Position numbers and translations under genes: made by a program. Below, piece by piece: positions 2,349-62,165 of a stretch of 64,000 bases of DNA. The DNA comes from an uncultured bacterium (GTDB lineage Bacteria; Patescibacteriota; Minisyncoccia; Phycocordibacterales; UBA9973). The DNA lies in the NCBI GenBank assembly GCA_903894955.1, contig CAITSA010000001.1, positions 3,769-67,768 on the forward strand. Reading direction: 5' to 3'. Position 1 is the first letter of the stretch. Each line of letters begins with the position of its first letter. A model generated the notes under the pieces. The model ran no database searches and was not told the DNA's origin. It saw only the letters and a list, made by a program, of their open reading frames with translations.

Positions 2349-2350
2349 AT

Positions 2351-4075
2351 TTAATAAACTTCTTGTTGATAACACCTCTCACAATACACAATCTCTGGTC
2401 TATCTGGAGAATAAGAAGTTTCGAATTCATTAACACATCCTTCTTTCATACACTTTCTATGCCAAAGGTTTAAAGGATTTCTTTGTTTTAATCTCTGGTA
2501 ATGTCTACAATTAGGACATAATCTAGGTAAAGGTAGATTCATCCTTTGGTAGAATTGTAACTCAGCTCCTATGATTTTGAAGGCTTCAGTGCATTGTTCA
2601 TTGCATTCTCCTTTATGTTCACATTCAATGACTTTCCCTACCATATCATCCTTTACTTTTTTAATATCATTAGGAATATCTTCTGTTTTAATGTCTATGG
2701 TATAGTTTCTTTCTTCTCTATCTTTCCATTTAAAACCTTGTTTTAAAGCTTCTTCTTTTGTTAAAGGAAAGTATTCTTGAGCAATGGTTTCGTTGTAACA
2801 GAAGGGTGACAATTCACTTGGAAAGAATTCTCCATATTTGTATATTCTACCCTTACTATCTATATATAGCATATCATTCATATGCTGTATGATTTTTGGA
2901 ACTAATTCTTCGTATTGTTCCTTGGTGTATTGTTTGTTGAGGATGCAGTAGGATTTGTTATGTAAGCCAATGCAACCAAAGAGATTATTACAATTATCAC
3001 AATCGATCGAATATGAAACATTTATTAAATTTAAACCATGTAAAGTACTTAAAATATTAGAACTAAAATCAACATTCAAGGATTCATAAGCTAGTTCTCC
3101 TCCACTAACACCAAAGACATCACTGGTATCTTTTTGTCCCTTAACAGACCTAATACTATATCTAACATTATCAACCTCTGAAACAAAATGAGATTTTTTT
3201 ACATTTCTTGAATTGTTAATAAAATTTCCAGTGACATTAACATAGTTTTTCCCAATCATAAATTTATTAATAGCTTGGCTTTTGACTTTTGTATATTTAT
3301 TAAATAATTCATCAAGCCCATTTTTCAAATTAAGGGAATTTAATAAAGATTCTTTGATTTTAAAAAATTCTTCTTTTGAAACTGGTTTATTTTCAATGTA
3401 AAATTGTTGATTACGAAGATTAGAAGAAAAAAGACAATTCTGACAATTTTTACAATCATATATAAACCAGCAATCTATACAATTTTCACAATCCTGAGCA
3501 AAAAAGGTTTGGTAACAGGTATCAGAATTTATCAACTGAGTTGAAAGTTCACATTTATTTATCCATGAATTATCAACACAATTTTTACTTTCCAAAACAG
3601 TATCACCATACTGACAATTTTCTGAATACCAACTACCAAAAACTAAGTAGCAATCTTTCATATCAACACAAATATTACAATAATCACTTCTTACAGGATT
3701 AACGTTATATAAAGCATATTTTGGAACTTTTTTATCAAGATTATGGAACTGTTCAAAAAATGATTTAGTAAAATCATAATCTACTCCATAATCTCTAGGG
3801 TCCCAATTGTCATCATTTATCCAATATTCTTTATCATAAATTACATAAGGAGATTCGGGAGAATACATACTTATTATTTTTTCTTTAGATTTTGAAGCAC
3901 TATTTTCTTTTTTATATAAAACCCTTTCATTTCTGAATAATAATCTTCGTATTGTTCTACATTCTGGACAAAAAGTCGGAGCAGAAACTTTTATTTTTTT
4001 ATAGAAAGTAAAATCTTCTAGCTCAATTTTAAAGTCTTTTTTACAATTTTGACAAACCTTAGTTTCTACCTGCAT
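2351..4075 (-). CDS. Cys-rich zinc-ribbon protein, paralogue 1 of 3, function unknown
   Basis: 574-aa ORF. The N-terminal module CQNCKKDF..FYKK..FCPECRTIRR is echoed at the C-terminus (FKIIGAELQFYQRMNLPLPRLCPNCRHYQR...YCERCYQQEVY). The centre is full of [ND]C / CxNC repeats. Paralogous to 22579-24303 and 54239-55918. Confidence 0.8.
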   Translation of the reverse strand: MQVETKVCQNCKKDFKIELEDFTFYKKIKVSAPTFCPECRTIRRLLFRNERVLYKKENSASKSKEKIISMYSPESPYVIYDKEYWINDDNWDPRDYGVDYDFTKSFFEQFHNLDKKVPKYALYNVNPVRSDYCNICVDMKDCYLVFGSWYSENCQYGDTVLESKNCVDNSWINKCELSTQLINSDTCYQTFFAQDCENCIDCWFIYDCKNCQNCLFSSNLRNQQFYIENKPVSKEEFFKIKESLLNSLNLKNGLDELFNKYTKVKSQAINKFMIGKNYVNVTGNFINNSRNVKKSHFVSEVDNVRYSIRSVKGQKDTSDVFGVSGGELAYESLNVDFSSNILSTLHGLNLINVSYSIDCDNCNNLFGCIGLHNKSYCILNKQYTKEQYEELVPKIIQHMNDMLYIDSKGRIYKYGEFFPSELSPFCYNETIAQEYFPLTKEEALKQGFKWKDREERNYTIDIKTEDIPNDIKKVKDDMVGKVIECEHKGECNEQCTEAFKIIGAELQFYQRMNLPLPRLCPNCRHYQRLKQRNPLNLWHRKCMKEGCVNEFETSYSPDRPEIVYCERCYQQEVY

Positions 4076-11680: not shown

Positions 11681-12337
11681 ATGATCAAAATACAACCAAT
11701 AGTGCGAGAAATAGTGCTTGGAGAATTAGAGGCTTGTTTTGCTTTAACTAATGGCTATATGAATATGAGCAGTTATGCACATCGCATTCGTCCAAAGGTG
11801 GAGGCCCTCACCAAAAAACAAGTAACTATTACCAGCCTAGTGGTTTCTTTGTCACGCTTACGAAAAGAATTTAAAAAAGAAAAACCTCTGATCCACGATG
11901 TCACTATAAAAAATATAACCACCAAACTCCCCATCTCAGAGATAATCTACGAAAACAACAGTAAATTTATTGAGGAGCTCGAATCATTTTATAAAGAAAT
12001 AGCAGTGACTCCGGAAGACTTTTTTACCATTACTATGGGGACCGCCGAGATTGATATTCTTTGTTCTTCTAATTTAGAAAATAAAGTATTGAAACATTTT
12101 AAAATAAAACCAAAAATTATGAATCATAATTTAGCAGCTATTGGAATTTCCTATGGCTCAGAAGTTTTCGGTATGCCAAATGTTTTCTTTTCGCTTCTTT
12201 CAGTTACCGCTCGAGCCCGCATCAACATAGAAGAGCTCGTCTCTACTCCAACTGAATTAATTTTTATTATTGCTGAAAAAGATTTCAGTCAAACAGTCGC
12301 TTTATTTTCTGAACTACATCGAGAAGTTAATAAATAA
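11681..12337 (+). CDS. hypothetical protein with C-terminal ACT-like domain
   Basis: The C-terminal ~70 aa (LAAIGISYGSEVFGMPNVFFSLLSVTARARINIEELVSTPTELIFIIAEKDF) look like an ACT fold by eye. Divergent from the dap operon. Confidence 0.4.
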   Translation: MIKIQPIVREIVLGELEACFALTNGYMNMSSYAHRIRPKVEALTKKQVTITSLVVSLSRLRKEFKKEKPLIHDVTIKNITTKLPISEIIYENNSKFIEELESFYKEIAVTPEDFFTITMGTAEIDILCSSNLENKVLKHFKIKPKIMNHNLAAIGISYGSEVFGMPNVFFSLLSVTARARINIEELVSTPTELIFIIAEKDFSQTVALFSELHREVNK

Positions 12338-14177: not shown

Positions 14178-14663
14178 ATGACACGAATTTTAGGGATAGA
14201 TCCAGGATACGAACGACTTGGGGTCGCTATCTTGGAAAAGAATAAAGGTGATAAAAAAGAAAGAGTGCTTTTTTCGGAATGTTTTAAAACTTCAGCTAAA
14301 TTAAATTTTTCTGAACGATTATTTTTAATTGGCGAAGAAGTAAAAAAAGTAATAAATAAATACAAACCAGAAGTTCTTTCAATTGAAACTCTTTTCCTAA
14401 ACACTAATCAAAAAACAGTGATGAAAGTCGCAGAAGCACGCGGAGTGGTTGTTTATGAAGCTGTCAGCGCTGGATTGAAAATATTTGAAGCTTCTCCTCC
14501 CCAAATAAAAATAGCCACCACGGGTTACGGCCGAGCCAACAAAGAACAAATAACAAAAATGGTAAAAATATTAGTGGACATCGAAAAATCTAAAACCTCT
14601 GACGATGAATTGGACGCTATCGCTATCGCACTAACAGCCCTTGCTTGCCTAAAAATGAAGTAA
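14178..14663 (+). CDS. ruvC: crossover junction endodeoxyribonuclease RuvC
   Basis: ILGIDPGYERLG N-terminus, ...ELDAIAIAL C-terminal acidic motif; 161 aa. Confidence 0.85.
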   Translation: MTRILGIDPGYERLGVAILEKNKGDKKERVLFSECFKTSAKLNFSERLFLIGEEVKKVINKYKPEVLSIETLFLNTNQKTVMKVAEARGVVVYEAVSAGLKIFEASPPQIKIATTGYGRANKEQITKMVKILVDIEKSKTSDDELDAIAIALTALACLKMK

Positions 14664-14758
14664 TACTTTTAAAAACCGCACATAATTTTCTGCTGAAAAT
14701 TTGCTATGCTCGGCTCGCCAGCCTGCGCAATGCTTTTTAAAAGTATTACTTCATTTTT
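14651..14758 (+). repeat. arm-core-arm element, copy A (conserved hairpin CTCGGCTCGCCAGCCT at 14709-14724)
   Basis: 25-bp perfect inverted arms (14651-14675 / 14734-14758). The left arm contains the last codons and stop of ruvC. The 58-nt core shares its architecture with 25589, 49870 and 59225. Confidence 0.7.
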
Positions 14759-25590: not shown

Positions 25591-25731
25591 AAATATAAAT
25601 ATGACTTTTTCCGGTACGGATTTTTAGTCGCACCAAAAGGACTTGCGCGACATGATTCCGCAGAATCAAAAATCCTGAAGTTCTCGGCTCGTCAGCCTCG
25701 AAACCCCTTCAAAAGGCATATTTATATTTTT
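25589..25731 (+). repeat. arm-core-arm element, copy B (conserved hairpin CTCGGCTCGTCAGCCT at 25683-25698)
   Basis: 15-bp perfect inverted arms AAAAATATAAATATG / CATATTTATATTTTT. The core matches copy C except for an enlarged first hairpin. Confidence 0.7.
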
Positions 25732-31838: not shown

Positions 31839-32285
31839 TTACTTATTATTCTCTTTTTGTTTACTTAAATCTAATATATCCAAACTCCAAGCTAAATCTC
31901 GTAACTTACTCCCGCTTAACTGGTCGCCTTCTTTTATCATTTGAACTTTATTTGTATTATTATTTTTTTCCCCGCCCGCATCGCCTTGCGAAGCATGGCG
32001 GGCAGGTATACGTTTTTTCCAGATGTAAAGTTTATTTTGGGTAAAATATTTAAAACTTGATTCTAGCATATTCACAAAAGGTTTATTATTTGGTTTATAA
32101 AAAGTAAGGGTTAGAGAAAATCCAGCCATGATTAAAATCGGGATTGCTCCCATCACGAGACCTAATAATTTATACAATACAAAACATAGGCCTGCTCCTC
32201 CTGCCAAGTAAATAAATTCCCTAAAAGTAAAAGGACCAAATATTTTATCTTCAATATCTAAAAATTGTGGAACTTTGAATTGCAT
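31839..32285 (-). CDS. PrgI/VirB3-like small membrane protein
   Basis: MQFKVPQFLDIEDKIFGPFTFREFIYLAGGAG followed by two TM helices; directly upstream of the VirB4 ORFs. Confidence 0.6.
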   Translation of the reverse strand: MQFKVPQFLDIEDKIFGPFTFREFIYLAGGAGLCFVLYKLLGLVMGAIPILIMAGFSLTLTFYKPNNKPFVNMLESSFKYFTQNKLYIWKKRIPARHASQGDAGGEKNNNTNKVQMIKEGDQLSGSKLRDLAWSLDILDLSKQKENNK

Positions 32286-36268: not shown

Positions 36269-38875
36269 CTAATTTGCTAACCATACTCCAGTAGCTTTTT
36301 TACATTCCGATTGTAATGTATTGGGTATTGGTAGGGTCGTAGGTAGTGTTGTTTGGTTAGGTAGTTGTATTGTGCAAGTCCCGAGTGGTTCTAATGGTCC
36401 CCAAGTTCCGGAATTTTGAGTACATTGGTATTTGGTTAAATCTGTGTCAATAACTCCATTGATGTACCTACAATTACCTAATGTTTCTGTGTCACCCACA
36501 TGAAGAGGTGTCTCGTTTAGGTTTCCAGGTAAGTCTCCTTTATAATCTGATGCTCTTGCATTAAAAATATTATTGCAATTAATTTCTGGGACCCACGATG
36601 CATCTTCCAAAGGGTTTCCGGGTATAAAACCACCACCAAGAGTAAAGCTGAAAGCAACAGATTTCAAAAGTGATGCAATAGTCACAGTTTTATATTGCAA
36701 TCCATTCTGTCCATTATTTGCTGGATTTACTAATGGTATCTCTGGATAGGTAACATTACTATTCCCAAAGTATGGATGAGAATACCCACCACTACTTGGC
36801 AAACTACAGAATAATGCTTCTTCTGTTTTACCATTATCTACGGTTGGTCCACTAGGGCTAGGGTTTTTCCAGGTAGCACTTGGCCCACCAGGATTACTCC
36901 AACCCTTGGCGGCTCTTTCTGCTGGGCAAGAAAGGGGATTGTTTATATCCAACAAACTAACAAAATTGTTATACATGTCTTTTACTTCAGATAATTTATT
37001 TCGTGTATTTTCTATGGTATTTGTATTAGACAAGTCAGTGCTTGCTCCTTGATATTGTTTCCAGATTGATACTAGAGTTTGTTCTTCCGCTGAACCTGTG
37101 TCTGGTTGGGTATTTGTAGGAAATTTAAGATCCAAATTTGTTTTAATTGCTTGCAGTCTTGCTAGAGCAGTATTTTTGGCCATTCTATCACTATTTAGTT
37201 GGTCCATTCCTTGAGACAATTTTGTAATACTGTTTACTGCATCTATATATGCTAATGAACTTGGAAGTTCAGGCATCATTTTATTATCTATCCAAGCCTT
37301 GAAAAATTTCATAGCGGAAGTTAATTCTTTTATAATTGAATCTACTTCGTCTTGGTTGGTACCACCAGTAACAATACTCAAAAAACCACTTGCTTTTGTT
37401 TGAACATCTGCTCGTGCCTTGGTAACTTCTGCGTCAACTCTGTCTTTTAGTCCTATAACATCTGGACCGGGAATACATTCATCAAGTTTCTGTGCCTCGG
37501 GCCAAACTTTACTATAGTATTGATATATGCCAGGATTTACAGGATCCTCGTTATACATTAATCTGATTTCTGTGTTTAAACTGTTTATCCCTTGGTTTAC
37601 TGTGTTCTTAAAGTCACTTAAGACAATTGGTTGGTCTGGACCCCCATTCCAATTATCAGTTGAGTTGGTGCCTGTGCCTGCGTCCAATGGGCTACCAACA
37701 GTTTGGCCATTATAACTCCAATCATCTGTTACGGGGGCAGGATTTATTGTGCTTGAGAGCGCACTTAAGCCTTTATCTAAGTAGTGACTTATCAGAGCAT
37801 CAAAGACAGCAGACAAACTATTGCCTACTGCTCCATCAAGGGCTGTTGTTAAGAACGGTGAATTTATAGCAGTCATTATAGAATTAGCAGCAACTGAACC
37901 CGGAGTAGTGTTTTCAAAGCCACTTGTCCCATCTTTTTTTGGTGGACAAGTATTTGCGTCTGTCCAGGTTTTTTTTGTTGCATCATAGTCGGCATTCCAT
38001 TTTGCTAGGTTGGCGCTGTCTTTCGTTGCATCACCTGTTAATGCTGGTTGGGGTTCTTTTTGGTAAAATGCAGCATCATCAAAACTTGGTTGTGTAAATT
38101 CATTTGTACCATTATTAAATTTCGGATTGGTTGCACATTTTTGTGGAGATAAAAAGCCCGCTCCTTGCGCAAGGAGACCTTTGACTCCTTCGGCAGCGGA
38201 TTGTTGAGTGCCTCTAACATCATTGGCAAGTTGTTGAGTTGCTATCATTTGAAATCCTAATACATTATTTTGTGGATATTGAGTGTTAGTTAGAAATCCA
38301 TTCCACCCTCCATAACTAAAGTCATTTCTATAACTGTTAAGTTGTGCTGAATTCATAACATTACTTAAAGTATATGTGGCATTATTTTCTTGGGTAGTTT
38401 TATAAAGATTGATTGCATCTAGCGCGAATTGCTTGCCAAAAGGATAGAGTAGGTTGTTATAGCCATAGGTATTTACTATGTTTTTTAATTGAGATTTAGC
38501 TATATCACCAAAGAAAGACTGAGGATTTGTTAAGAAAAGTGGGGATCCATGAAAATCAGAATTTATCCAGTTTATAGTAGACTTGGTCATTTCTGCCAAA
38601 ACTTTTTTTGCCACTGCTTTAGCTAATTCTTGAAGTATTTTTTGGGCTTGATCTTGATATTTTAGTGCGAGATCTTTTAAACTTGTAGCTAATAATTCCA
38701 GCGAACTTGCTGCGATTGAGGAAGTTGAAAAATCTCCTATTGGGTTAGTTCCAACATCTCCTGCCCCCCAAACAGCGTATCCTGTTTTTGGGAAAGACAA
38801 CAAAACAGAGGGTAATAATATCAAAATAATTAAAAGACCAGAGATGAATTTTTTTGTTTTATTACTGACTGTCAT
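36269..38875 (-). CDS. large secreted protein, unknown function
   Basis: 868 aa; N-terminal signal/anchor (LLIILILLPSVLLSFPKTGYA); Asn/Thr/Gly-rich. Confidence 0.7.
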   Translation of the reverse strand: MTVSNKTKKFISGLLIILILLPSVLLSFPKTGYAVWGAGDVGTNPIGDFSTSSIAASSLELLATSLKDLALKYQDQAQKILQELAKAVAKKVLAEMTKSTINWINSDFHGSPLFLTNPQSFFGDIAKSQLKNIVNTYGYNNLLYPFGKQFALDAINLYKTTQENNATYTLSNVMNSAQLNSYRNDFSYGGWNGFLTNTQYPQNNVLGFQMIATQQLANDVRGTQQSAAEGVKGLLAQGAGFLSPQKCATNPKFNNGTNEFTQPSFDDAAFYQKEPQPALTGDATKDSANLAKWNADYDATKKTWTDANTCPPKKDGTSGFENTTPGSVAANSIMTAINSPFLTTALDGAVGNSLSAVFDALISHYLDKGLSALSSTINPAPVTDDWSYNGQTVGSPLDAGTGTNSTDNWNGGPDQPIVLSDFKNTVNQGINSLNTEIRLMYNEDPVNPGIYQYYSKVWPEAQKLDECIPGPDVIGLKDRVDAEVTKARADVQTKASGFLSIVTGGTNQDEVDSIIKELTSAMKFFKAWIDNKMMPELPSSLAYIDAVNSITKLSQGMDQLNSDRMAKNTALARLQAIKTNLDLKFPTNTQPDTGSAEEQTLVSIWKQYQGASTDLSNTNTIENTRNKLSEVKDMYNNFVSLLDINNPLSCPAERAAKGWSNPGGPSATWKNPSPSGPTVDNGKTEEALFCSLPSSGGYSHPYFGNSNVTYPEIPLVNPANNGQNGLQYKTVTIASLLKSVAFSFTLGGGFIPGNPLEDASWVPEINCNNIFNARASDYKGDLPGNLNETPLHVGDTETLGNCRYINGVIDTDLTKYQCTQNSGTWGPLEPLGTCTIQLPNQTTLPTTLPIPNTLQSECKKATGVWLAN

Positions 38876-39924: not shown

Positions 39925-40728
39925 CTAGCTTTTAGAGAGGGCAATCCAGCCAGAAAGAGTTAAATCTTCTGCTCTTTTGTTTTTTAAGGTCTCTGAAGTA
40001 GAAATTCCTCTATTTTTTAGATTTGAGGAGAGCTTTTTTCTTTTATGAGCAAAGCCAGCTTTGACTATTCCCCAAAATCTTTCCTCATCAATGTTGTTTT
40101 CCTTAAAAGTCTTTCGAGAAATATTTTTTATGGCAATAATAGCTGAATCAACCTTGGGGCTGGGTGAAAAATATCTTTTATCAACTTTTGCAATAATTTT
40201 TGGCTCCCCGTAAGCTTTGACTGAAATAGACAGAATACTTTCTTTATTATCACGAGCCACTATTCTTTTTGCTACTTCGTGTTGCACCATTAGAATCATC
40301 CTTTCTGGTTGTGCTTCTATTGTTAAAAATTTTTTTAAAATTGCACCAGTAATATTATAAGGAATATTGGCGATGATTTTATAGTGAACCCCTCTAGCCT
40401 TCCTTGTCATGGGAATATTTTCTCCCCCTGCTAAGGGGGAGATTAAGAGGGGGTCGAATTTTAAAATATCATCATTTATTAAAATTAATTTTTTTTCTAA
40501 AATTTCTTTTTCAAATTTTGTTTTTAAAAATTCAAAAAGTTCACGGTCTTTTTCTACTGCGATGACGAGATTGGATTGCTCTAAAAGTTTTTCTGTGAGT
40601 GCTCCTTTTCCTGGTCCAATTTCTAAAATTACATCATCTTTTTTTATTTCCCCAACTTCCGCAATTTTCTTTAAAGCAATTTCTGACTTTAAAAAATTTT
40701 GCCCCAGTGATTTTTTAGCTCTGTGCAT
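39925..40728 (-). CDS. rsmA: 16S rRNA (adenine1518/1519-N6)-dimethyltransferase
   Basis: Start moved to ATG 40728 (MHRAKKSLGQNFL). EIGPGKGALT SAM motif; ANIPYNITG. Confidence 0.85.
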   Translation of the reverse strand: MHRAKKSLGQNFLKSEIALKKIAEVGEIKKDDVILEIGPGKGALTEKLLEQSNLVIAVEKDRELFEFLKTKFEKEILEKKLILINDDILKFDPLLISPLAGGENIPMTRKARGVHYKIIANIPYNITGAILKKFLTIEAQPERMILMVQHEVAKRIVARDNKESILSISVKAYGEPKIIAKVDKRYFSPSPKVDSAIIAIKNISRKTFKENNIDEERFWGIVKAGFAHKRKKLSSNLKNRGISTSETLKNKRAEDLTLSGWIALSKS

Positions 40729-40736
40729 AAATATAA

Positions 40737-42335
40737 TTATTGGAATGCAATAGTGCCTATAATTAAAATAAGATAGATCATATAAACCACAAACGCTTTC
40801 CATTCTTTATAATTTTCTTCATTAATGAAATACCAAGAAAGGATGGAAGCTATGATAGATGGAACAAAAAGGAATGGAATGTGAAAATACCATGGAATTA
40901 AAAGAAAGAAAAAACAAATAATTCCAGCAATTAATTTTTTAGATTTTTTTAATCCCAATAAAGTAGGAATGGTTTTTATACGAGCGACACGATCTCCTTC
41001 AAAATCTTTAATATCACGAATATTAGAAACTGCAATATGGAAAATAACAATAGCTACAGCCAGACCAAACGGGAAAGCAGTGATAGCTTTATTAGGACTT
41101 ACTAAGAAAAATCCTCCTAAAACAGCTGATAAACAAGCAAGTCCAACTAGGCTGGAATTTAAGATGACGAATCTTTTTAGTCTTAAGGGCGGATTGGAAT
41201 AAATAAAATAAATAGAAAGTCCTAGGCAGGTAAAAAATAATATATAAAGGCTAGATGCATAAGCTGATAATAATGCAAAGATTAGAAATATTTTTGAAGC
41301 TATCTCTAGGTCATTTTTTGATAAATCTTTTGTAATTAATGGACGATTTTTATTTGATACAGTATCAATTACTTCATCTTGTATATCATTTTGACAAATA
41401 CTAAACATTCCAGCACAAATAAGTGTTATGGTCGCTAATATATAACTCTGAATATCAATCCAGTTTGTTGACCAGGTGCCATGAGCCAAAACCACGCCAA
41501 ATATGGATAAAAGAAAAAAATAAAATAGTCTTTCCAATCGGCTGTTTTTTAGTAAAGCTATTAATTTTTTTCTAGCACCAAGAAAGAAAAAAGAAAGGGT
41601 AGCTAATATAGCTATGATGGTGTTAAAACCAATCATTGTTTTATTAAAAGCGAATTCAATTAGTCCTTGGTTGGTTGCTGTGAAATTTGGATCAAGATTA
41701 TTTTGAATTATGTGTGATGAAATGATTGATTGTACGACTGAAAAAGCTGGTCCATTTTGGTTTGGTAAGAATAAAGCTATTAATGAAGGAATTGAGCCAA
41801 GGAAAAGTACAAAAACATAAAAAGCAAAAGTTGCTCCCAGAGCCCGAAGAAAATTTTTTGTAACTTTGTACACGTAAACACAACAAAAAATACCTCCAAT
41901 GATTCCTTCAATTTTCATTCCAAGAGTTACCCCAGAGTTTATCTTTCCGCTAAAAAAATATGTCCCAAACTGAAGCAGTAAGTCTTTTCCAGTTACGAAA
42001 AGATAATTTATTGGGTGTCCACCCACTCCGCCAAAAATTAAATCAATAATTGGAGGAATCCAAATTACGAAAAATCCTAAAAGACAAATTACTGACACTT
42101 CTTTTAGACTTGTTTTGGCAAAAAACATTAAAATAACCATTAAGCCAACAATAGTAGTAAGAAAAAATATATTAAAATGAATGATACTGGATAGATTAAT
42201 CAGAATAAATTCTCCTGGTTTAAAATTTGAAAACTGCTCTAATAGAGCTCTGATCAATACAATCCCAACAAAAGAAGCAATCCAAGAATTAAAAGTTATC
42301 GGGACAGAATTTGCATACAAGCGCAATTTTTCCAT
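40737..42335 (-). CDS. UbiA-family prenyltransferase with ~300-aa N-terminal polytopic extension
   Basis: NDIQDEVIDTVSNKNRPL and DIKDFEGD Asp-rich motifs in the C-terminal half. 532 aa, hydrophobic throughout. Confidence 0.65.
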   Translation of the reverse strand: MEKLRLYANSVPITFNSWIASFVGIVLIRALLEQFSNFKPGEFILINLSSIIHFNIFFLTTIVGLMVILMFFAKTSLKEVSVICLLGFFVIWIPPIIDLIFGGVGGHPINYLFVTGKDLLLQFGTYFFSGKINSGVTLGMKIEGIIGGIFCCVYVYKVTKNFLRALGATFAFYVFVLFLGSIPSLIALFLPNQNGPAFSVVQSIISSHIIQNNLDPNFTATNQGLIEFAFNKTMIGFNTIIAILATLSFFFLGARKKLIALLKNSRLERLFYFFLLSIFGVVLAHGTWSTNWIDIQSYILATITLICAGMFSICQNDIQDEVIDTVSNKNRPLITKDLSKNDLEIASKIFLIFALLSAYASSLYILFFTCLGLSIYFIYSNPPLRLKRFVILNSSLVGLACLSAVLGGFFLVSPNKAITAFPFGLAVAIVIFHIAVSNIRDIKDFEGDRVARIKTIPTLLGLKKSKKLIAGIICFFFLLIPWYFHIPFLFVPSIIASILSWYFINEENYKEWKAFVVYMIYLILIIGTIAFQ

Positions 42336-43490: not shown

Positions 43491-45560
43491 TTATAAGTAA
43501 ATTGTTTTTATTCCACTGGCCTCACCTTCTTTTTTTAAAATATCAGCTGGAATATCTGAAATAAATTCTGATGGTGTATTTATCTGGCGTGATCCAAAAA
43601 TAGTCCGGAAATTTGCAAATGACAAAAATAATTTTTCTTTAGCGCGAGTGAGTGCCACATAAAAAAGTCTGCGTTCTTCCTCGTCGTCTTCATTTGCTTT
43701 ATTTTCATTTTGTCTTTCGTGTGGGAAAAGTCCATCTTCTAATCCTGTAATAAAAACATATTTAAATTCAAGTCCTTTTGAAGCATGGACGGTCATAAGT
43801 TTTATAGCGTTTACTTTTTCTTTTTTTTCTTGATTAATCATTAATGAATCTTGATCTGATGCTAGTGACGCATCTTCTAAAAGTTTTTCTACTCCTGTTC
43901 CACTTGTTAGATTGTCATATTTGAGTGCAAGGGTGGCGAGCTCTTTGATGTTTTCTAATCTCTCCATATCTTCTTCGGTTCCAGCAGAAAGTTCTTGTTC
44001 AATCCCGGACTTTTTAACTACAAATTTTATTATCTCGCTTGTCTTTAAACCTTGTTTTTGTTCATCTTGTCTGGATATTTTTTCTTTTATCTCTTCGAGT
44101 ATTTTATAAAAATTATTAATTTTTATTTGCATTTTTATCGGCAAGGTTTCTCTTTGTCCAGAAAAAATTTTCATTAAAGTTACTTTTCCGATGCCTCGTG
44201 CTGGGAAATTTATTATTCTTTTTATATCAGATAAACTATCGGGGTTTAGAGCTGCTCGTAAATAGGCTAAAGTATCTTTAATTTCTTTTCTTTCAAAAAA
44301 TTTAACACCTAAAACTTGATATGGGATATTATACCGAAGCATCGCTTCTTCCAAAACTCTGGACTGAAAATTTGCACGATAAAGAATTGCTATTTCAAAC
44401 AAATGAGAGGATGTTACTTTTGTGGGGTCGCTGTCTGTGCCTACTGGCACAGCGCTGCCTCTCGGCCCGTCGGCCTGTGAGACACCCCTCAAAAGCAAAT
44501 CCTCTCCTTTGTCTAGTATTTCTAGAATTTTTGTTGCGACGAATTCTCCTTCGTCTGTTTCGTCGAGTGCTTCATATAAGCCTATCTTCTCCCCTTCCAC
44601 ATTGTTTGTAAATAAATTTTTATCTGGTCTATATTTATTTTTCTTGATTACCACATTGGCTGCTTCTAAAATATTTTTTGTAGATCTGTAATTTTGTTCC
44701 AGTAAAATTATTTTTGCATTTGGATAATCTTTTTCAAAATTTAAAATATTTTTCAAATTTGCTCCGCGCCAAGAATAGATATTTTGATCTGCATCACCCA
44801 CCACGCAAATATTTCTATTAGTATTTGTTAGTAATTTAGACATCAAATACTGCACTTCATTTGTGTCTTGATATTCATCGATGTGTATATATTCCCATCT
44901 TTCTTGATAAATTTTTCTTATCTCTTTGTTTTCTTTTAATAATTTTGTAGTCTTTAACAACAGATCATCAAAATCTAATGCATTCTCTTTTGTCTTTTGT
45001 TTTTCATATAAATTCCAAACTTGAGCCACAATTTTCCCCAAAGAATTTCCTCCTCCCTCTTCCCTTTCTACATAATCCGCTAAATATACAAACTTTCCTT
45101 TTTCTCGGGAAATTATATTTTTGATTTTTTTTGGATCATATTGTTTCGGGTCTAAGCTAAGCTCTTTTAAGATATTCTTTATCAGAGTGGTGGTATCATT
45201 TTCGTCTAAAATAGTAAAATATTTTGTTAAACCTAAAAGTTGTGCATTTTCTTTTATAATATAGACTCCCAAAGAGTGGAAGGTGCTGACGAAAGGAATT
45301 TTATCTTGTCCTTTGGCATTTTTTTGGATTTCTCCGATAATTCTCTCGCGCATTTCTTTAGCTGCTTTGTTGGTGAACGTGACCGCTAAAATTTTATCAG
45401 GCGAAACTCCATTTTTTATTAGATTGACAATTCGATGCGTAATAGTCTTTGTTTTTCCCGCTCCCGCTCCAGCCACAATCAAAAGTGGACCCTTCACATG
45501 AAGTGCTGCCTCTTTTTGCTCCTTATTGAGACCTTTTAAATGCTGTTCGTCTATAGCCAC
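43491..45560 (-). CDS. pcrA: UvrD/PcrA-family SF1 DNA helicase
   Basis: AGAGAGKTKTITHR, IHIDEYQDTN, VGDADQNIYSWRGA, TVHASKGLEF. Confidence 0.9.
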   Translation of the reverse strand: MAIDEQHLKGLNKEQKEAALHVKGPLLIVAGAGAGKTKTITHRIVNLIKNGVSPDKILAVTFTNKAAKEMRERIIGEIQKNAKGQDKIPFVSTFHSLGVYIIKENAQLLGLTKYFTILDENDTTTLIKNILKELSLDPKQYDPKKIKNIISREKGKFVYLADYVEREEGGGNSLGKIVAQVWNLYEKQKTKENALDFDDLLLKTTKLLKENKEIRKIYQERWEYIHIDEYQDTNEVQYLMSKLLTNTNRNICVVGDADQNIYSWRGANLKNILNFEKDYPNAKIILLEQNYRSTKNILEAANVVIKKNKYRPDKNLFTNNVEGEKIGLYEALDETDEGEFVATKILEILDKGEDLLLRGVSQADGPRGSAVPVGTDSDPTKVTSSHLFEIAILYRANFQSRVLEEAMLRYNIPYQVLGVKFFERKEIKDTLAYLRAALNPDSLSDIKRIINFPARGIGKVTLMKIFSGQRETLPIKMQIKINNFYKILEEIKEKISRQDEQKQGLKTSEIIKFVVKKSGIEQELSAGTEEDMERLENIKELATLALKYDNLTSGTGVEKLLEDASLASDQDSLMINQEKKEKVNAIKLMTVHASKGLEFKYVFITGLEDGLFPHERQNENKANEDDEEERRLFYVALTRAKEKLFLSFANFRTIFGSRQINTPSEFISDIPADILKKEGEASGIKTIYL

Positions 45561-49865: not shown

Positions 49866-49869
49866 AATT

Positions 49870-49973
49870 CTTTAGAATATAACTTTTTCCGGTACGGATT
49901 TTTCGAAGCTTGAAAAATCCTGAAGTTCTCGGCTCGTCAGCCTCGAAACCCCTACAAAAATTATATTCTAAAG
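49870..49973 (+). repeat. arm-core-arm element, copy C (conserved hairpin CTCGGCTCGTCAGCCT at 49928-49943)
   Basis: 13-bp perfect arms CTTTAGAATATAA / TTATATTCTAAAG. Core: TTTTTCCGGTAC-[GGATTTTTCGAAGCTTGAAAAATCC]-TGAAGTT-CTCGGCTCGTCAGCCT-CGAAACCCCTAC. Confidence 0.7.
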
Positions 49974-49977
49974 ATAT

Positions 49978-56625: not shown

Positions 56626-57441
56626 TTAAATCTCTAGCCAAATTGGACAGTGGTCCGAGCCGTAATAATCAGACAACATGCCCGTGGCTTTTATCCCGAC
56701 GCTTTTAGGTCGGGACCCCGACAACGAAGTTCGTCGGGGCTTTAGATCTTTGAAAAAAATTTCATCGGCAAAAAAATAATCAAGACGCCAGCCGACATTT
56801 CTATCTCTAGCGCGAGTTTTGATATCCCAATATGTATAAGCGCCAATTTTTTCTGGATAAAACTTTCTAAATACATCAATGAATTTATTTTTTATTACTT
56901 TATCAATCCAAGCACGTTCTATGGGCAAGAAACCAGTATTTTCAACGTTAGCTTTCGGGCGGGCAAGGTCGATTTCTTCATGGGCTGTATTTATATCTCC
57001 ACAAAAAATTACATTTTCGCCATTCTTTCGCAACTTCAGGATAAATTTTAGAAAAGCTTCGTAAAATTCTAATTTATATTTTAATCTATGTGGTCCTTGG
57101 CCACCATTTGGAAAATATCCAGTAATGATGGTGCAATTTTTTAATTTTACACCAAGCAATCTTCCCTCGTTGTCTAATTTTTTTACACCCATACCATAAA
57201 AAACTTCTCTCGGTTTTTCTTTAGTGTAAATTGCTACCCCACTGTATCCTTTCTTAATTTTTGGATGTGAAAAGTAAGAATAATATCCAGAAATATTTCG
57301 TACTTCGGGAGGCAATTGTTCTGGAGTGGCTTTTGTTTCTTGTAGACATAAAATATCTGGTCTGTTTTTAAATAGGGGAATAAAAAATCCTTGTTTTGCT
57401 GTTGCCCGAAGCCCGTTGGTGTTCCAAGAAATTATTTTCAT
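56626..57441 (-). CDS. xthA: exodeoxyribonuclease III
   Basis: [31 protein letters not shown]. Confidence 0.9.
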   Translation of the reverse strand: [271 protein letters not shown]

Positions 57442-58003: not shown

Positions 58004-58918
58004 TTACTGTTTGTTATGAAATTTTTTGTGTACTTCTCTTAATTGTTTGTCTGTTACGTGTGTATAGATTTGTGTAGTATTGATATTAGAATGTCCGAGC
58101 ATTGCTTGGACAGAACGAAGGTCAGCACCATTTGAAAGTAAGTCAGTAGCAAAGCAATGTCTTATTACATGTGGAGTTACCTTTTTTGATATTCCTGCAA
58201 TGGTGGCATATCTCTTTACAATTCTTTCAATCGAACGACTAGTTAGACCATCACTTTTTGATACTTCATCTTTGCCTTTTACAAAAAGGGCATCAGACAT
58301 ATCTTTTCTCAAAGCTAAATAATCTCTCACTGCTTTTTTTGCTTCATCAGATAAAAAAACCACGCGGACCTTGCCACCTTTGCCACGAATTGAAAATTCA
58401 TCTAAGTGTAAATCCAGATCATTTCTTAGTGAGCACAGTTCGGAAACACGCAGGCCGGTAGAAAAAAGCATTTCTAAAATTGCCTTATCACGGTACCTTC
58501 TTTCTAAGTTTCTTTCTTTATCTGGAGCGAGTAAAAGTCTTTTTAATTCTTCTTGTGAAATAATATCAATTTGTCTCTCATTGATTTTTGCCAGTTCTAT
58601 GTAATCGGCTGGTAGAGAAGCGATGTTTCTTTTTGTGAGAAATTTAAGAAAAGTCCGAAGAGCAATTAAATAATAATTTTGTGTTTTTTTTGTTACAGTA
58701 TTGCCAGTGGCACGGTTGTTTCCGGTTGACTGGCGATTGAGCCAAATCCGAAAATCTCGGACCTTGGTGTCCGTAATGTCTTTTGGGTCGGTTATTTTTG
58801 TTTGATTAAGAAAGACAGTCAAATAATGGTCGTAATTTTCTATTGTTCTAATAGCACGTCCTTTTTCTATTTCAATATATTCCAAAAATTCGGTTTTAAG
58901 CTGTTTAAGAGAGACCAT
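58004..58918 (-). CDS. tyrosine recombinase, XerC/XerD-like
   Basis: GLRVSEL, HVIRHCFAT, LGHSNINTTQIYTHV (R-H-R-Y catalytic set). Confidence 0.85.
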   Translation of the reverse strand: MVSLKQLKTEFLEYIEIEKGRAIRTIENYDHYLTVFLNQTKITDPKDITDTKVRDFRIWLNRQSTGNNRATGNTVTKKTQNYYLIALRTFLKFLTKRNIASLPADYIELAKINERQIDIISQEELKRLLLAPDKERNLERRYRDKAILEMLFSTGLRVSELCSLRNDLDLHLDEFSIRGKGGKVRVVFLSDEAKKAVRDYLALRKDMSDALFVKGKDEVSKSDGLTSRSIERIVKRYATIAGISKKVTPHVIRHCFATDLLSNGADLRSVQAMLGHSNINTTQIYTHVTDKQLREVHKKFHNKQ

Positions 58919-59224: not shown

Positions 59225-59356
59225 AAGATTTAAAACTCTTTCTTGGCATACTTTTTATAAAGCAATCTATCTGGCGAAGCTTCGCCAGCGAACTGCTCGG
59301 CTCGTCAGCCTGCGCAAGGCTTTCAAAAAAGTACGCCTGCAACAAGTTTTTAAATC
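59225..59356 (+). repeat. arm-core-arm element, copy D (conserved hairpin CTCGGCTCGTCAGCCT at 59296-59311)
   Basis: Long imperfect arms (AGATTTAAAACT..GGCATACTTTTTATAAAGC / GCTTTCAAAAAAGTACGCC..AAGTTTTTAAATCT). The core resembles copy A. Confidence 0.65.
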
Positions 59357-59372
59357 TGCTATAATTAAGTAT

Positions 59373-59882
59373 ATGACAGTCATAAAACATAAAGAACAGA
59401 GAGTTGGAGTTTTTATTGATACTCAAAATTTATACCACAGTGCACGCAATTTATATCAAGCGCGAGTTAATTTCGGTGCAGTTTTGAAAGATGCAGTAGC
59501 TGGACGAAAGCTTGTGCGGGCAGTGGCTTATGTTATCACCACTGAAGCGGGGGATGAGAAGAATTTTTTTGAAGCACTTTCTAAACTTGGGATTGAAACA
59601 AAAACAAAAGATTTACAAATATTTGCTGGAGGTGCAAAAAAGGCAGATTGGGATGTAGGTCTTGCCGTTGACGCTATTAAAATGTCTCCTCGATTGGACT
59701 CGGTGGTAATTATTTCTGGGGATGGAGACTTTGTTCCGTTGGTAGAATATTTACAGACTATTGGTGTGCAAGTTGAAGTTGTTTCATTCGGTAAATCAAC
59801 TTCTGGGAAACTCCGTGAGGCGGTGGATGATTTTGTAGATTTGTCTGAAAATCCTAGAAAATATTTAATGGGGATGAAATAA
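59373..59882 (+). CDS. NYN/LabA-like domain protein
   Basis: VGVFIDTQNLYHS...VVIISGDGDFVPLVEYL. Confidence 0.8.
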   Translation: MTVIKHKEQRVGVFIDTQNLYHSARNLYQARVNFGAVLKDAVAGRKLVRAVAYVITTEAGDEKNFFEALSKLGIETKTKDLQIFAGGAKKADWDVGLAVDAIKMSPRLDSVVIISGDGDFVPLVEYLQTIGVQVEVVSFGKSTSGKLREAVDDFVDLSENPRKYLMGMK

Positions 59883-60014: not shown

Positions 60015-62165
60015 ATGGGCGAATATATGCAAAAAAAAGAATATAGTGTAGAGATTGGCGGAAAAACATTAACGGCTATTTTTACTGATTTAGCTGAACA
60101 AGCTCATGGTTCAGTAATATTAAAATATGGAGAAACAATTGTTCTGGCCACTGTTTGTATGTCTCATGACAAACAAAAAGGTTTAGGATATTTTAATTTG
60201 ACAGTTGATTATGTAGAAAAATTTTATGCAGCTGGAAAAATTTTAGGTTCACGTTTTGTTAGACGAGAAGGGAGACCTTCAGAAGAAGCTATCCTTGCCA
60301 GTCGAGTTATCGACAGGACTCTTCGTCCACTTTTTGATCAATCGATTCGTCACGCGGTGCAAGTCATTGTGACGGTTCTTTCGGTAGACGACAATGATCC
60401 GACGATTTTAGCAGTTAATGCAGCCTCTCTCGCTTTAGCTGTTTCGAATATTCCATGGAATGGTCCTATTGGTTGTGTGCGTATTGGTAAATACGATAAC
60501 GATAATCTAATCATCAATCCAGCCCAGTCTTTGCGTATAGATGAGGATACTCAATATAAGTTTGACCTAACTGTTTGCGGGAAAGATGGAAATATAAATA
60601 TGATTGAAGCCTCTGCCCGTCAGAGCAAGGAAGAAGAATTAGAAGAAGCCTTAGAAAAGGCAAGTATTGAAATAACTAAACTAGAAAATTTTCAAAAGAA
60701 AATAGTGGGAGAAATAGGTAAAGAAAAAAGAATTATTGAGAAAGAAATAATTTCTCCAGAATCAGTGGCTTTATTTAATGAAAATATTTTACCCAAAATG
60801 GAGGAAGCACTTTTTGGCGAAGCGGGCCTGCCTGCGCAGTCAGGCAAAAAGAAAATAGATGATTTGCATAATATGTGGAATAAAATGGTGCAGGATAAAT
60901 TCAAAGACCGAGACGATTTCTTCTTAGAAGATAATTTGTTTGATGATGCAGAAAATGAAATCTTGCACAAAAAAGCGATAGCAGAAAACAAAAGAGCTGA
61001 TGGAAGAAAGATGGACGAACTTCGTGATTTATATGCTCAAGCCGGAGGATTTTCGAGTAAATTACATGGTTCGGGAATTTTTTATCGTGGAGGAACACAT
61101 GTGCTTTCAGTCCTCACCTTAGGTGGTCCTGAAGATAGAAATTTAGTTGATGGCTTACAGTTGAAAGTAGAGAAAAGATTTATGCATCATTATAATTTTC
61201 CTCCTTATTCTGGAGGAGAAGTAGGAAGATCAGGTTTTACTAATCGCCGAGAAATTGGACATGGAGCCCTCGCCGAAAAAGCTCTAGCGATGGTTCTGCC
61301 TTCAGTTTCAGAATTTCCATATACCATGAGAATTGTTTCTGAATCAATGGCTTCTAATGGTTCTACTTCACAAGCAAGTATTTGCGCTTCTATTCTCGCC
61401 TTGATGGATGGCGGAGTGCCAATTAAAGCACCTGTCGCTGGCATAGCGATGGGCTTGATGATTGAAGATGATGCAAAATACAAAATTTTGACTGACATTC
61501 AAGGACCCGAAGATCATCATGGTGATATGGATTTCAAAATTGCTGGAACGAGAATTGGTGTTACCGCTATCCAGCTTGATGTAAAAGTAGAAGGAGTATC
61601 GATAAAAATATTAGGGGAAGCAATGAGACAAGGAAAAATTGCACGGGTAGTTATTATTGATAGACTAGAAAAAGAAATTCCAAAATCCCGAGACAATATT
61701 TCTCCAAACGCACCAAAGATTTTAATTATTAAAATTAATCCTGAAAAAATTGGTTTAGTGATTGGTGGTGGAGGAAAAACAATCAAAGAAATTAAAGAAA
61801 AATCTGGCGCGGAAATAACCATTGAAGATGACGGAACTGTTTATTTGACCGGAAAAGATGGATCAGCTGAAAAAGCAAAAGAATTAGTTGAAGAGATGAC
61901 TCATGAATTTAAAGTGGGGGAAATGTTGAAAGGTGAGGTTATGAAAATTCTTGATTTTGGAGCTTTTGTGGCCTTGAATCCTTTCACGGATGGAATGGTG
62001 CATATTTCTGAAATAGCACCATTTCGCGTCGAGAGAGTATCAGATATAATAAAGGAAGGGATGATTGTTCCAGTGAAAGTTATCTCTATTGATAAAGAAA
62101 GAGGGAAAATTGGTCTATCTATTAAAGAAGCGGATAAAGATTTTTTTAATGGCGGAAAAAAATAA
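60015..62165 (+). CDS. pnp: polyribonucleotide nucleotidyltransferase (PNPase)
   Basis: Two RNase PH domains; KH (VIGGGGKTIKEI); S1 (GEVMKILDFGAFVAL). Follows rpsO as usual. Confidence 0.9.
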   Translation: MGEYMQKKEYSVEIGGKTLTAIFTDLAEQAHGSVILKYGETIVLATVCMSHDKQKGLGYFNLTVDYVEKFYAAGKILGSRFVRREGRPSEEAILASRVIDRTLRPLFDQSIRHAVQVIVTVLSVDDNDPTILAVNAASLALAVSNIPWNGPIGCVRIGKYDNDNLIINPAQSLRIDEDTQYKFDLTVCGKDGNINMIEASARQSKEEELEEALEKASIEITKLENFQKKIVGEIGKEKRIIEKEIISPESVALFNENILPKMEEALFGEAGLPAQSGKKKIDDLHNMWNKMVQDKFKDRDDFFLEDNLFDDAENEILHKKAIAENKRADGRKMDELRDLYAQAGGFSSKLHGSGIFYRGGTHVLSVLTLGGPEDRNLVDGLQLKVEKRFMHHYNFPPYSGGEVGRSGFTNRREIGHGALAEKALAMVLPSVSEFPYTMRIVSESMASNGSTSQASICASILALMDGGVPIKAPVAGIAMGLMIEDDAKYKILTDIQGPEDHHGDMDFKIAGTRIGVTAIQLDVKVEGVSIKILGEAMRQGKIARVVIIDRLEKEIPKSRDNISPNAPKILIIKINPEKIGLVIGGGGKTIKEIKEKSGAEITIEDDGTVYLTGKDGSAEKAKELVEEMTHEFKVGEMLKGEVMKILDFGAFVALNPFTDGMVHISEIAPFRVERVSDIIKEGMIVPVKVISIDKERGKIGLSIKEADKDFFNGGKK

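Follow-up and report, generated by a model that had tools for sequence, protein, structure and literature searches.

We propose, with a probability of about 0.7, that a GC-rich segment lying in frame within the pcrA/uvrD-type helicase gene of an uncultured member of the Patescibacteriota represents a single copy of a palindromic DNA repeat, T-shaped and non-coding, that is dispersed and selfish, is mobile or recombinationally exchangeable, and is tolerated and translated by its host. The gene lies in a 64,000-nucleotide (nt) stretch of contig CAITSA010000001.1, referred to here as the window, and the repeat belongs to a family that is common in Paceibacteria/Nomurabacteria-like Patescibacteria. 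Copies come and go at particular sites between close relatives, near-identical copies are found at different loci of one genome, and one site can hold either orientation or a different subtype. The copy in pcrA adds 99 nt with the reading frame kept and so would be read as a 33-residue peptide, which is probably translated rather than skipped or removed; the helicase appears to tolerate it, and selection may act only as a filter on the sites, and on the reading frames out of the six, that persist.

Architecture and family membership of the pcrA element

The window has a GC content of approximately 33%, and its pcrA gene (43491 to 45560, minus strand) contains a 65-nt island of approximately 70% GC at positions 44424 to 44488, with the sequence GGGGTCGCTGTCTGTGCCTACTGGCACAGCGCTGCCTCTCGGCCCGTCGGCCTGTGAGACACCCC. 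An earlier note on this DNA had assigned a three-way-junction element to these positions; the coordinates, parts, and order of parts that it gave are those found here, but its transcription had lost six bases (CTGT after GGGGTCG and CT before CTCGGCC), and the island is the GC-rich center of a structured unit that covers 114 nt, not 65. The whole hairpin (44399 to 44512) consists of a long closing stem and a three-way junction and folds as RNA on both strands, with energies of -57.3 kcal/mol (z = -7.4) on the plus strand and -67.0 kcal/mol (z = -10.4) on the minus (mRNA) strand. In plus-strand coordinates, the left arm of the closing stem, P1 (44399 to 44423; a locus-specific outer part followed by ACTTTTG), pairs in both folds with the right arm (44489 to 44512), and on the gene strand these arms encode ...TKVTSSHLF and DKGEDLLL, respectively. 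The inner part of P1, in which GGGGT (44424 to 44428) pairs with ACCCC (44484 to 44488), encloses a variable hairpin, P2 (44435 to 44452; CTGTGCC-TACT-GGCACAG), and a conserved hairpin, P3 (44459 to 44481; CTC-T-CGGCC-CGTC-GGCC-T-G-T-GAG), which was located by both folding and motif search and holds a 17-nt motif at 44461 to 44477. Peptides that the hairpin would encode on the gene strand include GVSQADGPR and SAVPVGTDSDPTK.

The 17-nt motif, CTCGGCYCGTCRGCCTG, occurs five times in the window when up to three mismatches are allowed, versus 0.01 occurrences expected, at positions 14709, 25683, 44461, 49928, and 59296, always on the plus strand, and the match at 44461 to 44477 is exact. The four additional sites correspond to copy A (14659 to 14750, overlapping the stop codon of ruvC between convergent genes), copy B (25596 to 25724), copy C (49874 to 49969, between the genes for an M23 peptidase and a ZIP transporter), and copy D (59245 to 59337, between the genes for an XerC/D-like recombinase and an NYN-domain protein), all on the plus strand. 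All copies share one layout, in which P1 includes ACTTTT...AAAAG and is followed by a variable 7-bp P2 and a conserved, bulged P3. A conserved core, ACTTTT...CAAAAG (80 nt; 44416 to 44495, plus strand), is supported by covariance model matches and has the same boundaries in copies A, C, and D, the span from ACTTTT to AAAAG or AAAAA being 79 nt in copies A and C and 80 nt in copy D and the focal copy. That the parts of the focal element follow the same order as those of copy D, as claimed previously, is borne out by the folds, in which both form the same P1-P2-P3-P1 junction around a core of approximately 80 nt.

Membership of the family was assessed with a covariance model, R1, which was seeded with copy D alone and its folded structure, with the focal site excluded, and was run over the window with filters off; a joint alignment of copies A to D was abandoned as a seed because MAFFT left P2 and P1 out of register, and the single-sequence seed followed by iteration was used instead. 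R1 scored the focal site at 45.8 bits (E = 1.1e-8; 44409 to 44502, all 93 model positions), copy A at 55.1 bits (E = 5.7e-11), and copy C at 25.2 bits (E = 0.0012), whereas the best unrelated match in the window reached approximately 14 bits (E = 0.6). The focal site thus stands well above background, and its score, the common architecture, and the compensatory changes described below uphold its assignment to the intergenic three-way-junction family. A family model, R2, recovered exactly five members in the window, the next match scoring 17 bits, and gave 79.2 bits for the focal site (44408 to 44503), 82.8 bits for copy A, 37.3 bits for copy B, and 50.5 bits for copy C. A near-identical counterpart of copy D lies upstream of pcrA in locus L008 (96 bits).

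Covariation was strong in all helices. In alignments of 38 and 109 copies, 94.8% and 94.4% of stem cells were paired, versus 62% and 66% in shuffled controls and 37 to 51% and 36 to 49% when partners were slid, and 28 and 29 of 31 pairs, respectively, had changed on both sides; both alignments were fitted to the model, which favors pairing, but neither the magnitude of the effect nor the folding of individual copies depends on that fitting. The inner P1 helix (GGGGT/ACCCC) was 93% paired and covaried at 5 of 5 pairs, P2 was 96 to 98% paired, with 7 of 7 pairs changed on both sides across copies, and P3 was 98 to 99% paired, with its loop and bulges invariant. The compensatory change from GGCT/AGCC to GGCC/GGCC noted previously is real and, by pair counts, family-wide: the apical pair of P3 was C-G in 18 copies, U-A in 16, G-C in 2, and never unpaired in the first set, and was C-G in 64 and U-A in 35 of 101 copies in the second, while the lower stem of P3 alternates between CUC/GAG, UGC/GCA, and UUC/GAA. 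G-U pairs accounted for approximately 1% of stem cells, leaving the stems near-purely Watson-Crick; compensatory evolution at the RNA level, or a structured RNA, would be expected to yield more of them. Within the encoded motif SQAD[G/E]PR, the exchange between Gly and Glu (GGG/GAG) is strictly coupled with a silent substitution (GCC/GCT) in an Ala codon at a distance of nine bases, and G- or C-ending codons are fixed in the insert within a genome whose preference is otherwise for A and T. From these sequence patterns, we infer that the constraint acts on the nucleic acid, at the DNA level, and not on the protein.

The five window copies were also compared with known RNA families and with their surroundings. 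Rfam 15, including the hammerhead and other small ribozymes, was negative for all five copies, both at the gathering threshold and with E values of up to 10 allowed. A hammerhead or small ribozyme had been considered on account of CUGAAGUU...CGAAAC in copies B and C and CUGACGAG on the reverse strand, but required core residues are missing. Copy D belongs to a subfamily in which approximately 20 more bases on each side (AAAACTCTTTCTTGGCATACTTTTT ... AAAAAGTACGCCTGCGACGAGTTTT) are conserved across species and loci (window 59245 to 59337, L008:9869-9962, L019:2547-2639, L046:12174-12266, and L048:946-1075), so that the conserved unit of this type is approximately 130 nt, unlike the other subtypes with their locus-specific arms. 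The common strand of the five window copies has a two-sided chance probability of 1 in 16, and the cumulative GC skew has its minimum near 52 kb, so that a possible origin there would separate four of the copies from the fifth. Copies A and D adjoin genes for enzymes acting on junctions or nucleic acids (RuvC, 14178 to 14663; the XerC/D-like recombinase, 58004 to 58918; and the NYN nuclease, 59373 to 59882), an adjacency that, with two cases only, may be coincidence.

Site occupancy in pcrA orthologues and in other genes

The product of the host gene is a PcrA/UvrD-type superfamily 1 helicase of 689 residues, as judged from its translation and from matches to PDB entry 1pjr (E = 1e-158), M. 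tuberculosis UvrD1 (7e-127), and E. coli UvrD (6e-113) and to the Pfam families UvrD-helicase (E = 9e-88) and UvrD_C (E = 3e-62), the last of which is split by the insert. The open reading frame (ORF) runs uninterrupted through the element, reading ...DLLLRGVSQADGPRGSAVPVGTDSDPTKVTSS... (in its long form, ...ILDKGEDLLLRGVSQADGPRGSAVPVGTDSDPTKVTSSHLFEIAILYR...), and the peptide is that given in the earlier note. The alignment with 1pjr is broken at query residues 353/389, equivalent to PcrA residues 348/353, and that with UvrD is broken after residue ~344, which places the insert past a helix ending in ...ILEILD, before the IAILYR strand, and upstream of the domain 2B motif ARGIGK (GIG) by approximately 65 residues. 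If, as we assume, the GIG motif marks domain 2B and the limits of the UvrD domains are residues 281 to 377 and 551 to 647 for 2A and 378 to 550 for 2B, the insert would occupy a surface loop of domain 2A rather than lying in domain 2B, onto which its mapping had been suggested before. In the same gene, the conserved C-terminal helicase region gave a subthreshold Rfam match to RF03531 ("C. difficile sRNA included into helicase gene"; 43612 to 43709, minus strand; 46.5 bits against a gathering score of 65.2), which most likely reflects conservation of the coding sequence.

Alignment of PcrA homologues from Patescibacteria, whose source names (Pacebacteria, Nomurabacteria, Paceibacterota, and Minisyncoccia) assign the host genome to this phylum, confirmed that the segment is an insertion of 33 codons relative to an empty orthologue. 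An exact-match look-up of the window protein itself gave no entry. Orthologues that are 77 to 88% identical fall into three groups at the site: empty forms that read ILEILDxG-LSEIAVLYR, forms with an insert of approximately 33 residues that read ADLLLRG-VSQAD[GE]PRGS-AxRARx-DSDPxKxE, and forms with other inserts, most of which are long hairpins (z = -4 to -9). In the nearest orthologue with an empty site (P0017/L201; 83 to 88% identical), LDGSAFSD takes the place of 41 residues in the window, a net gain of 99 nt (44403 to 44501, minus strand) that corresponds to codons E354 to S386, EDLLLRGVSQADGPRGSAVPVGTDSDPTKVTSS, and is rich in Gly, Ser, Pro, Arg, and Asp. On a neighbor-joining tree of PcrA computed with the hotspot columns excluded, which is rough but whose nearest-neighbor contrasts rest on proteins that are 83 to 88% identical, all distant orthologues are empty at the site, while within the ingroup empty, antisense, and sense states, an A-type subtype (KSIAQADGPSIAISQQGNMCGF), and other hairpins are intermixed; the nearest relatives of the window are L202, which carries other hairpins, and L201, which is empty. 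Because close orthologues either lack or carry the segment, distant ones are all empty, and the ingroup states are mixed, we regard it as an insertion and not as an ancestral loop. The sense and antisense forms at this site are reverse complements of the whole element, arms included, and the reading frame is kept in both orientations, the reverse-complement form encoding a different peptide, SLSPRARGALPLGSSACETP. The plus orientation of the element within a minus-strand gene, to which attention had been drawn, therefore holds for the window but is not a fixed property, since other species carry the opposite orientation at the same PcrA site.

Turnover is also apparent at other sites. A second PcrA hotspot for the family lies near residues 85 to 110, before the FVSTFH motif, where the window gene is empty and copies are present at L014:3950-4045, L021:200-295, L032:2191-2284, and L042:10228-10320. 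Seven species, including distant ones with an empty PcrA hotspot, carry a family copy 11 to 26 nt past the pcrA stop codon and always in the sense orientation (L019:2547-2639, L046:12174-12266, L014:6014-6105, L045:7542-7636, L057:3572-3667, L060:11934-12032, and L062:10555-10620). At the junction of the ZIP and M23 genes, the window has a 112-nt gap (49866 to 49977) with copy C, whereas the two stop codons are 2 to 3 nt apart in L201 (817 to 821) and L202 (2234 to 2237), which have no copy C; a member of a different subtype occupies this junction in L048. The ksgA gene of L202 contains an A-type copy (11920 to 12013) at the place where ksgA of the window contains a different hairpin (40385 to 40456), and in L011 and L070 the PcrA copy and a copy 1.3 kb away have the same P2 stem. 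No direct target-site duplication was visible at the PcrA site in comparison with L201 or at the ZIP/M23 junction in comparison with L201 and L202, where the flanks are diverged and remodeled into inverted repeats.

Beyond the window, copies were sought in 80 PcrA loci of GTDB species and in metagenome contigs selected by an F-type pattern scan (at least 120 loci, 100 of which were searched with the family model). The GTDB loci contained 38 to 45 copies according to the models, at the main PcrA site, at the second PcrA hotspot, directly past the pcrA stop codon, and at other gene junctions, and the 100 metagenome loci contained at least 109 full-length copies. Host genes among the matches listed include those for TGT (two copies in one gene), a class I aminoacyl-tRNA synthetase, RecG, TsaD, UvrB, a formyltransferase (Fmt), and a CCA/poly(A) polymerase. 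Among 123 copies, 51 lay well inside ORFs of at least 300 residues; all 51 were in frame and used only two of the six frames, with 28 in the antisense orientation (GVSQADGPRGS...DSDP) and 23 in the sense orientation (GSLSP...ALPLGSSACETP). By direct reading of the consensus, none of the six frames of the GC-rich center contains a stop codon; the use of only two of them, although all are open, therefore points to filtering on the encoded peptide and hence to translation of the insert. An intein, intron, or bypass element was discounted, with the frame kept in 51 of 51 cases and in both orientations at the PcrA site, and 33 residues being far too short for an intein. Intergenic copies lie 9 to 30 nt past stop codons, and all 10 of those between co-directional genes are in the sense orientation, 7 of the 10 being at the post-pcrA site. 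A 46-column profile of the insert peptide matched a single 38-residue fragment in the protein database, a search limited by the small number of candidates that the word index supplied. A phage origin was also considered, but 0 of 28 exact 17-mer matches in viral contigs passed the family model, and these are chance matches.

All copies are embedded in hairpins that extend far beyond the core and whose outer 10 to 35 bp differ by locus; these outer arms comprise 232 Watson-Crick pairs, 14 transition-type mismatches, and 6 other mismatches. In PcrA, the arms extend into the native LD.. and ..LSE codons, covary between species, and are complementary in every orthologue, as illustrated by the left and right arms of the window gene (AGACAAAGGAGAGGAT and ATCCTCTCATTTGTTT), of L002 (GATAGCGGCGCGGAT and ATCCGCGCCGCTATC), and of L005 (GATGGCGGAGCAAAT and ATTTGCTCCGCCATC), whereas empty-site orthologues are without such a palindrome. 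In copy B, 42 extra bases (25626 to 25667) form two small hairpins in the P2 loop, and at L048:946-1075 a hairpin of approximately 40 nt replaces the P3 apex; both look like nested insertions into hairpin loops.

The window contains further GC-rich islands within genes, and these belong to other hairpin families, some of which occupy the PcrA hotspot in other species. The connection drawn earlier between the intergenic family and the insertions in coding sequences therefore holds in architecture but not in family identity, since the other in-gene islands of the window fail the family model. The polA gene (ORF 3 to 2378, minus strand) carries two palindromic in-frame inserts, at 1249 to 1347 and 1921 to 1978, neither of which is recognized by the family model; in the first, the outer stem of approximately 20 bp (GGGGAATTAAAGAAAGCAAAGTTTT.../...AAAACTTGCTTTCTTTAATTCCCC) is perfect, and the core of this insert, GGTCCTCGGTTCTCCAGGTCCCC.ACCCCGGCCAGACC, is found again in inserts at the PcrA hotspot (L025). 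The hairpin in ksgA (39925 to 40803, minus strand) is of the CTCCCCC...GGGGGAG type and likewise gives no family model score; this site is a second hotspot common to different hairpin families. Four more GC-rich islands within ORFs (31963 to 32014, 38155 to 38199, 56680 to 56740, and 60798 to 60847) are also without a family model score; those at 31963 and 56680 hold GC-rich hairpins, and that at 60798 is bounded by ACTTTTT...AAAAAG in the manner of the family core.

Origin and maintenance of the repeats

Three other explanations of these data deserve consideration. That the repeats are a functional structured RNA, such as a stabilizer of the 3' untranslated region, a terminator, a protein-binding motif, or a small RNA, with the PcrA copy tolerated or regulatory in the mRNA, is in our judgment unlikely, even though it would suit the covariation in all helices, the invariance of the P3 loop and bulges, the position of intergenic copies just past stop codons with all 10 co-directional cases in the sense orientation, and the presence of the element just past the pcrA stop in seven species that include distant ones. 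The strand carrying CAGGCYGACGRGCCGAG also folds better by approximately 10 kcal/mol, and transition-type mismatches lean the same way, 32 versus 8 in the model stems, but we give this asymmetry little weight, as the mismatches are scattered in gapped P1 columns, and it is gone in the outer arms (8 versus 6). The share of G-U pairs is far below what a structured RNA would be expected to show, both orientations are about equally common within genes, so that no single transcript strand is conserved, presence differs between close relatives, no Rfam family matches, and 7 of the 10 sense cases represent the same genomic site. A simple terminator scan, which is blind to branched stems, does not report the copies; TTTTTTT follows copy B, and a TTTTT run terminates the outer arm of copy A. 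Intergenic copies may nevertheless double as 3'-end structures.

A second possibility is that the hairpins are not mobile but arise and grow in place, at fragile quasi-palindromic sites, by template switching during replication, the core spreading only by gene conversion between hairpins already present. Locus-specific and almost perfectly Watson-Crick closing arms, the occurrence of several unrelated hairpin families at the same PcrA and ksgA hotspots, and orientation flips at one site are all in keeping with such a process, which accounts for maintenance better than for first arrival; however, an 80-nt core with the same boundaries and length recurs at many unrelated loci, and the junction occupied by copy C has no intergenic DNA in relatives and hence no hairpin there to convert, and we consider this origin improbable. 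Scarcely tenable, and already contradicted, is the idea that the insert is a lineage-specific loop kept for PcrA function, with its palindrome and its resemblance to intergenic sequence incidental: G-[VL]-SQAD-[GE]-PRGS...DSDP is well conserved in many PcrA orthologues, but the underlying nucleotide sequence is found again in intergenic DNA and within genes for unrelated proteins, other species have at the same site the reverse complement with its different peptide or nothing at all, and synonymous positions are fixed, with a radical Gly/Glu change coupled to a silent one.

We therefore favor a dispersed palindromic DNA repeat that is tolerated in coding sequence, in which a putative trans-acting factor probably recognizes the 17-nt P3 hairpin. 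The long, locus-specific, and almost purely Watson-Crick closing stem would be maintained and lengthened with one arm serving as the template for the other, through fold-back template switching or arm-to-arm conversion, and new hairpin elements would enter preferentially at the loops of existing hairpins, a preference that would explain the reuse of hotspots, the nested copies, and the orientation flips. Template-switch correction of quasi-palindromes is established in E. coli. This scheme of stem maintenance and loop entry is tentative, and we are similarly hesitant about the broader conjecture that the repeats could constitute an undescribed class of mobile T-shaped DNA hairpins, with propagation through a single-stranded fold-back intermediate, P3 as the handle for a nuclease or recombinase, arm copying that would leave stems perfectly Watson-Crick and growing into the flanking codons, and loop entry. 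The combined outcome would be persistent hotspots at which surface loops of essential proteins such as PcrA, TGT, RecG, UvrB, and aminoacyl-tRNA synthetases are continually rewritten.

Several considerations weigh against the reading that we prefer. No transposase, target-site duplication, or donor form was found, and mobility is argued from distribution; the ten window ORFs scanned for a transposase, which neighbor repeat copies or pcrA, contained none, and no whole-genome search was made. Arm-to-arm copying and loop targeting are deduced from patterns, and the repeated occupation of the PcrA site may stem from selection of sites that tolerate an insert, with no targeting involved. The invariance of P3 among divergent species, the placement 9 to 30 nt past stop codons, and the 10 of 10 sense copies would also fit an RNA or DNA signal of benefit to the host. 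Translation of the insert is suggested by conservation of the frame, and an AlphaFold model of PcrA, built with 32 close orthologues, leaves residues 352 to 384 without secondary structure at a predicted local distance difference test score (pLDDT) below 50, but the model is poor overall (mean pLDDT, 58.9), and the disorder of the insert is thus weakly supported.

Significance and relation to known repeats

The genomes of Patescibacteria are tiny and leave little space for selfish DNA, and still these repeats lie inside essential genes for replication, repair, and translation. Hundreds of metagenomic copies, both orientations at one site, and hotspots common to several hairpin families provide comparative material, and stem covariation that spans codons allows a constraint on nucleic acid to be told from one on protein. 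For annotation, loops of 30 to 40 residues rich in Gly, Ser, Pro, and Arg in these proteins would be repeat DNA and not lineage-specific domains; such segments should be masked in alignments and phylogenies of marker proteins, and the inserts may mislead structure prediction. The invariant P3 hairpin offers a handle on movement without a recognizable transposase. We found no description of such elements in Patescibacteria or the candidate phyla radiation in a search of the literature whose coverage was incomplete, and an earlier description is possible.

[quoted passage not shown] Some insertion sequences insert into REP-type hairpins. Terminal inverted repeats, a feature of MITEs, are present here as the ACTTTT...AAAAGT ends in P1, the arms beyond which are locus-specific. 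Unlike MITEs and REPs, the element is larger, branched, and often intragenic, and no target-site duplication, partner insertion sequence, or gene for a REP-associated tyrosine transposase (RAYT) was identified. Sequences of the REP/RAYT type are extragenic single hairpins of 20 to 40 nt with a 5' GTAG or CGTC tag, whereas these repeats are branched units of approximately 95 to 115 nt with many copies inside genes. In CGTC-tagged REPs, CGTC is a 5' tag (PMC3733652), whereas here it forms the loop of P3.

The inverted terminal repeats of adeno-associated virus (AAV), a parvovirus, are T-shaped, with a long stem and two small hairpins, exist in flip and flop forms, and have a small arm that takes part in recognition by an HUH nuclease. 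Our elements are chromosomal repeats and not the ends of a linear viral genome, and no Rep-like gene was found; the likeness is confined to the shape and to the existence of two mutually reverse-complementary forms, an analogy that may hint at a single-stranded hairpin intermediate. The family also resembles the double-hairpin elements of Allomyces and the GC clusters of yeast, GC-rich hairpins that are scattered across AT-rich, compact mitochondrial genomes, patchy in close relatives, and occasionally located in protein or rRNA genes at length-variable sites and kept in transcripts, those of Allomyces without flanking duplications (PMC2800124). They share with the present family GC-rich single or double hairpins, insertion within genes, and a patchy distribution, but they are organellar and eukaryotic and without a sequence relationship to it, and we found no report of a long locus-specific closing stem or of the use of two frames for the mitochondrial elements.

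The nearest parallel is with the Rickettsia palindromic elements (RPEs), which are short, non-coding, hairpin-forming repeats of a reduced genome that occur both between genes and in frame within unrelated housekeeping genes, with a preferred frame for each family, a conserved peptide that is judged compatible with the fold of the host protein, and no known transposase (PMC10969869). In a similar fashion, the family described here is both intergenic and in frame in unrelated housekeeping genes, where it is read as a conserved peptide. If our reading is true, palindromic DNA would have colonized coding sequence on a large scale in a second lineage, independently of Rickettsia. The likeness is one of behavior in a different phylum; we do not claim a sequence relationship or file the family as an RPE. 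Palindromic selfish DNA that inserts in frame is of a known kind, but, unlike RPEs, this family is GC-rich in an AT-rich genome and folds into a three-way junction in which one hairpin is nearly invariant, the element is read in either orientation, each having a single frame, its arms are locus-specific and extend into native codons, and its hotspots are common to several hairpin families.

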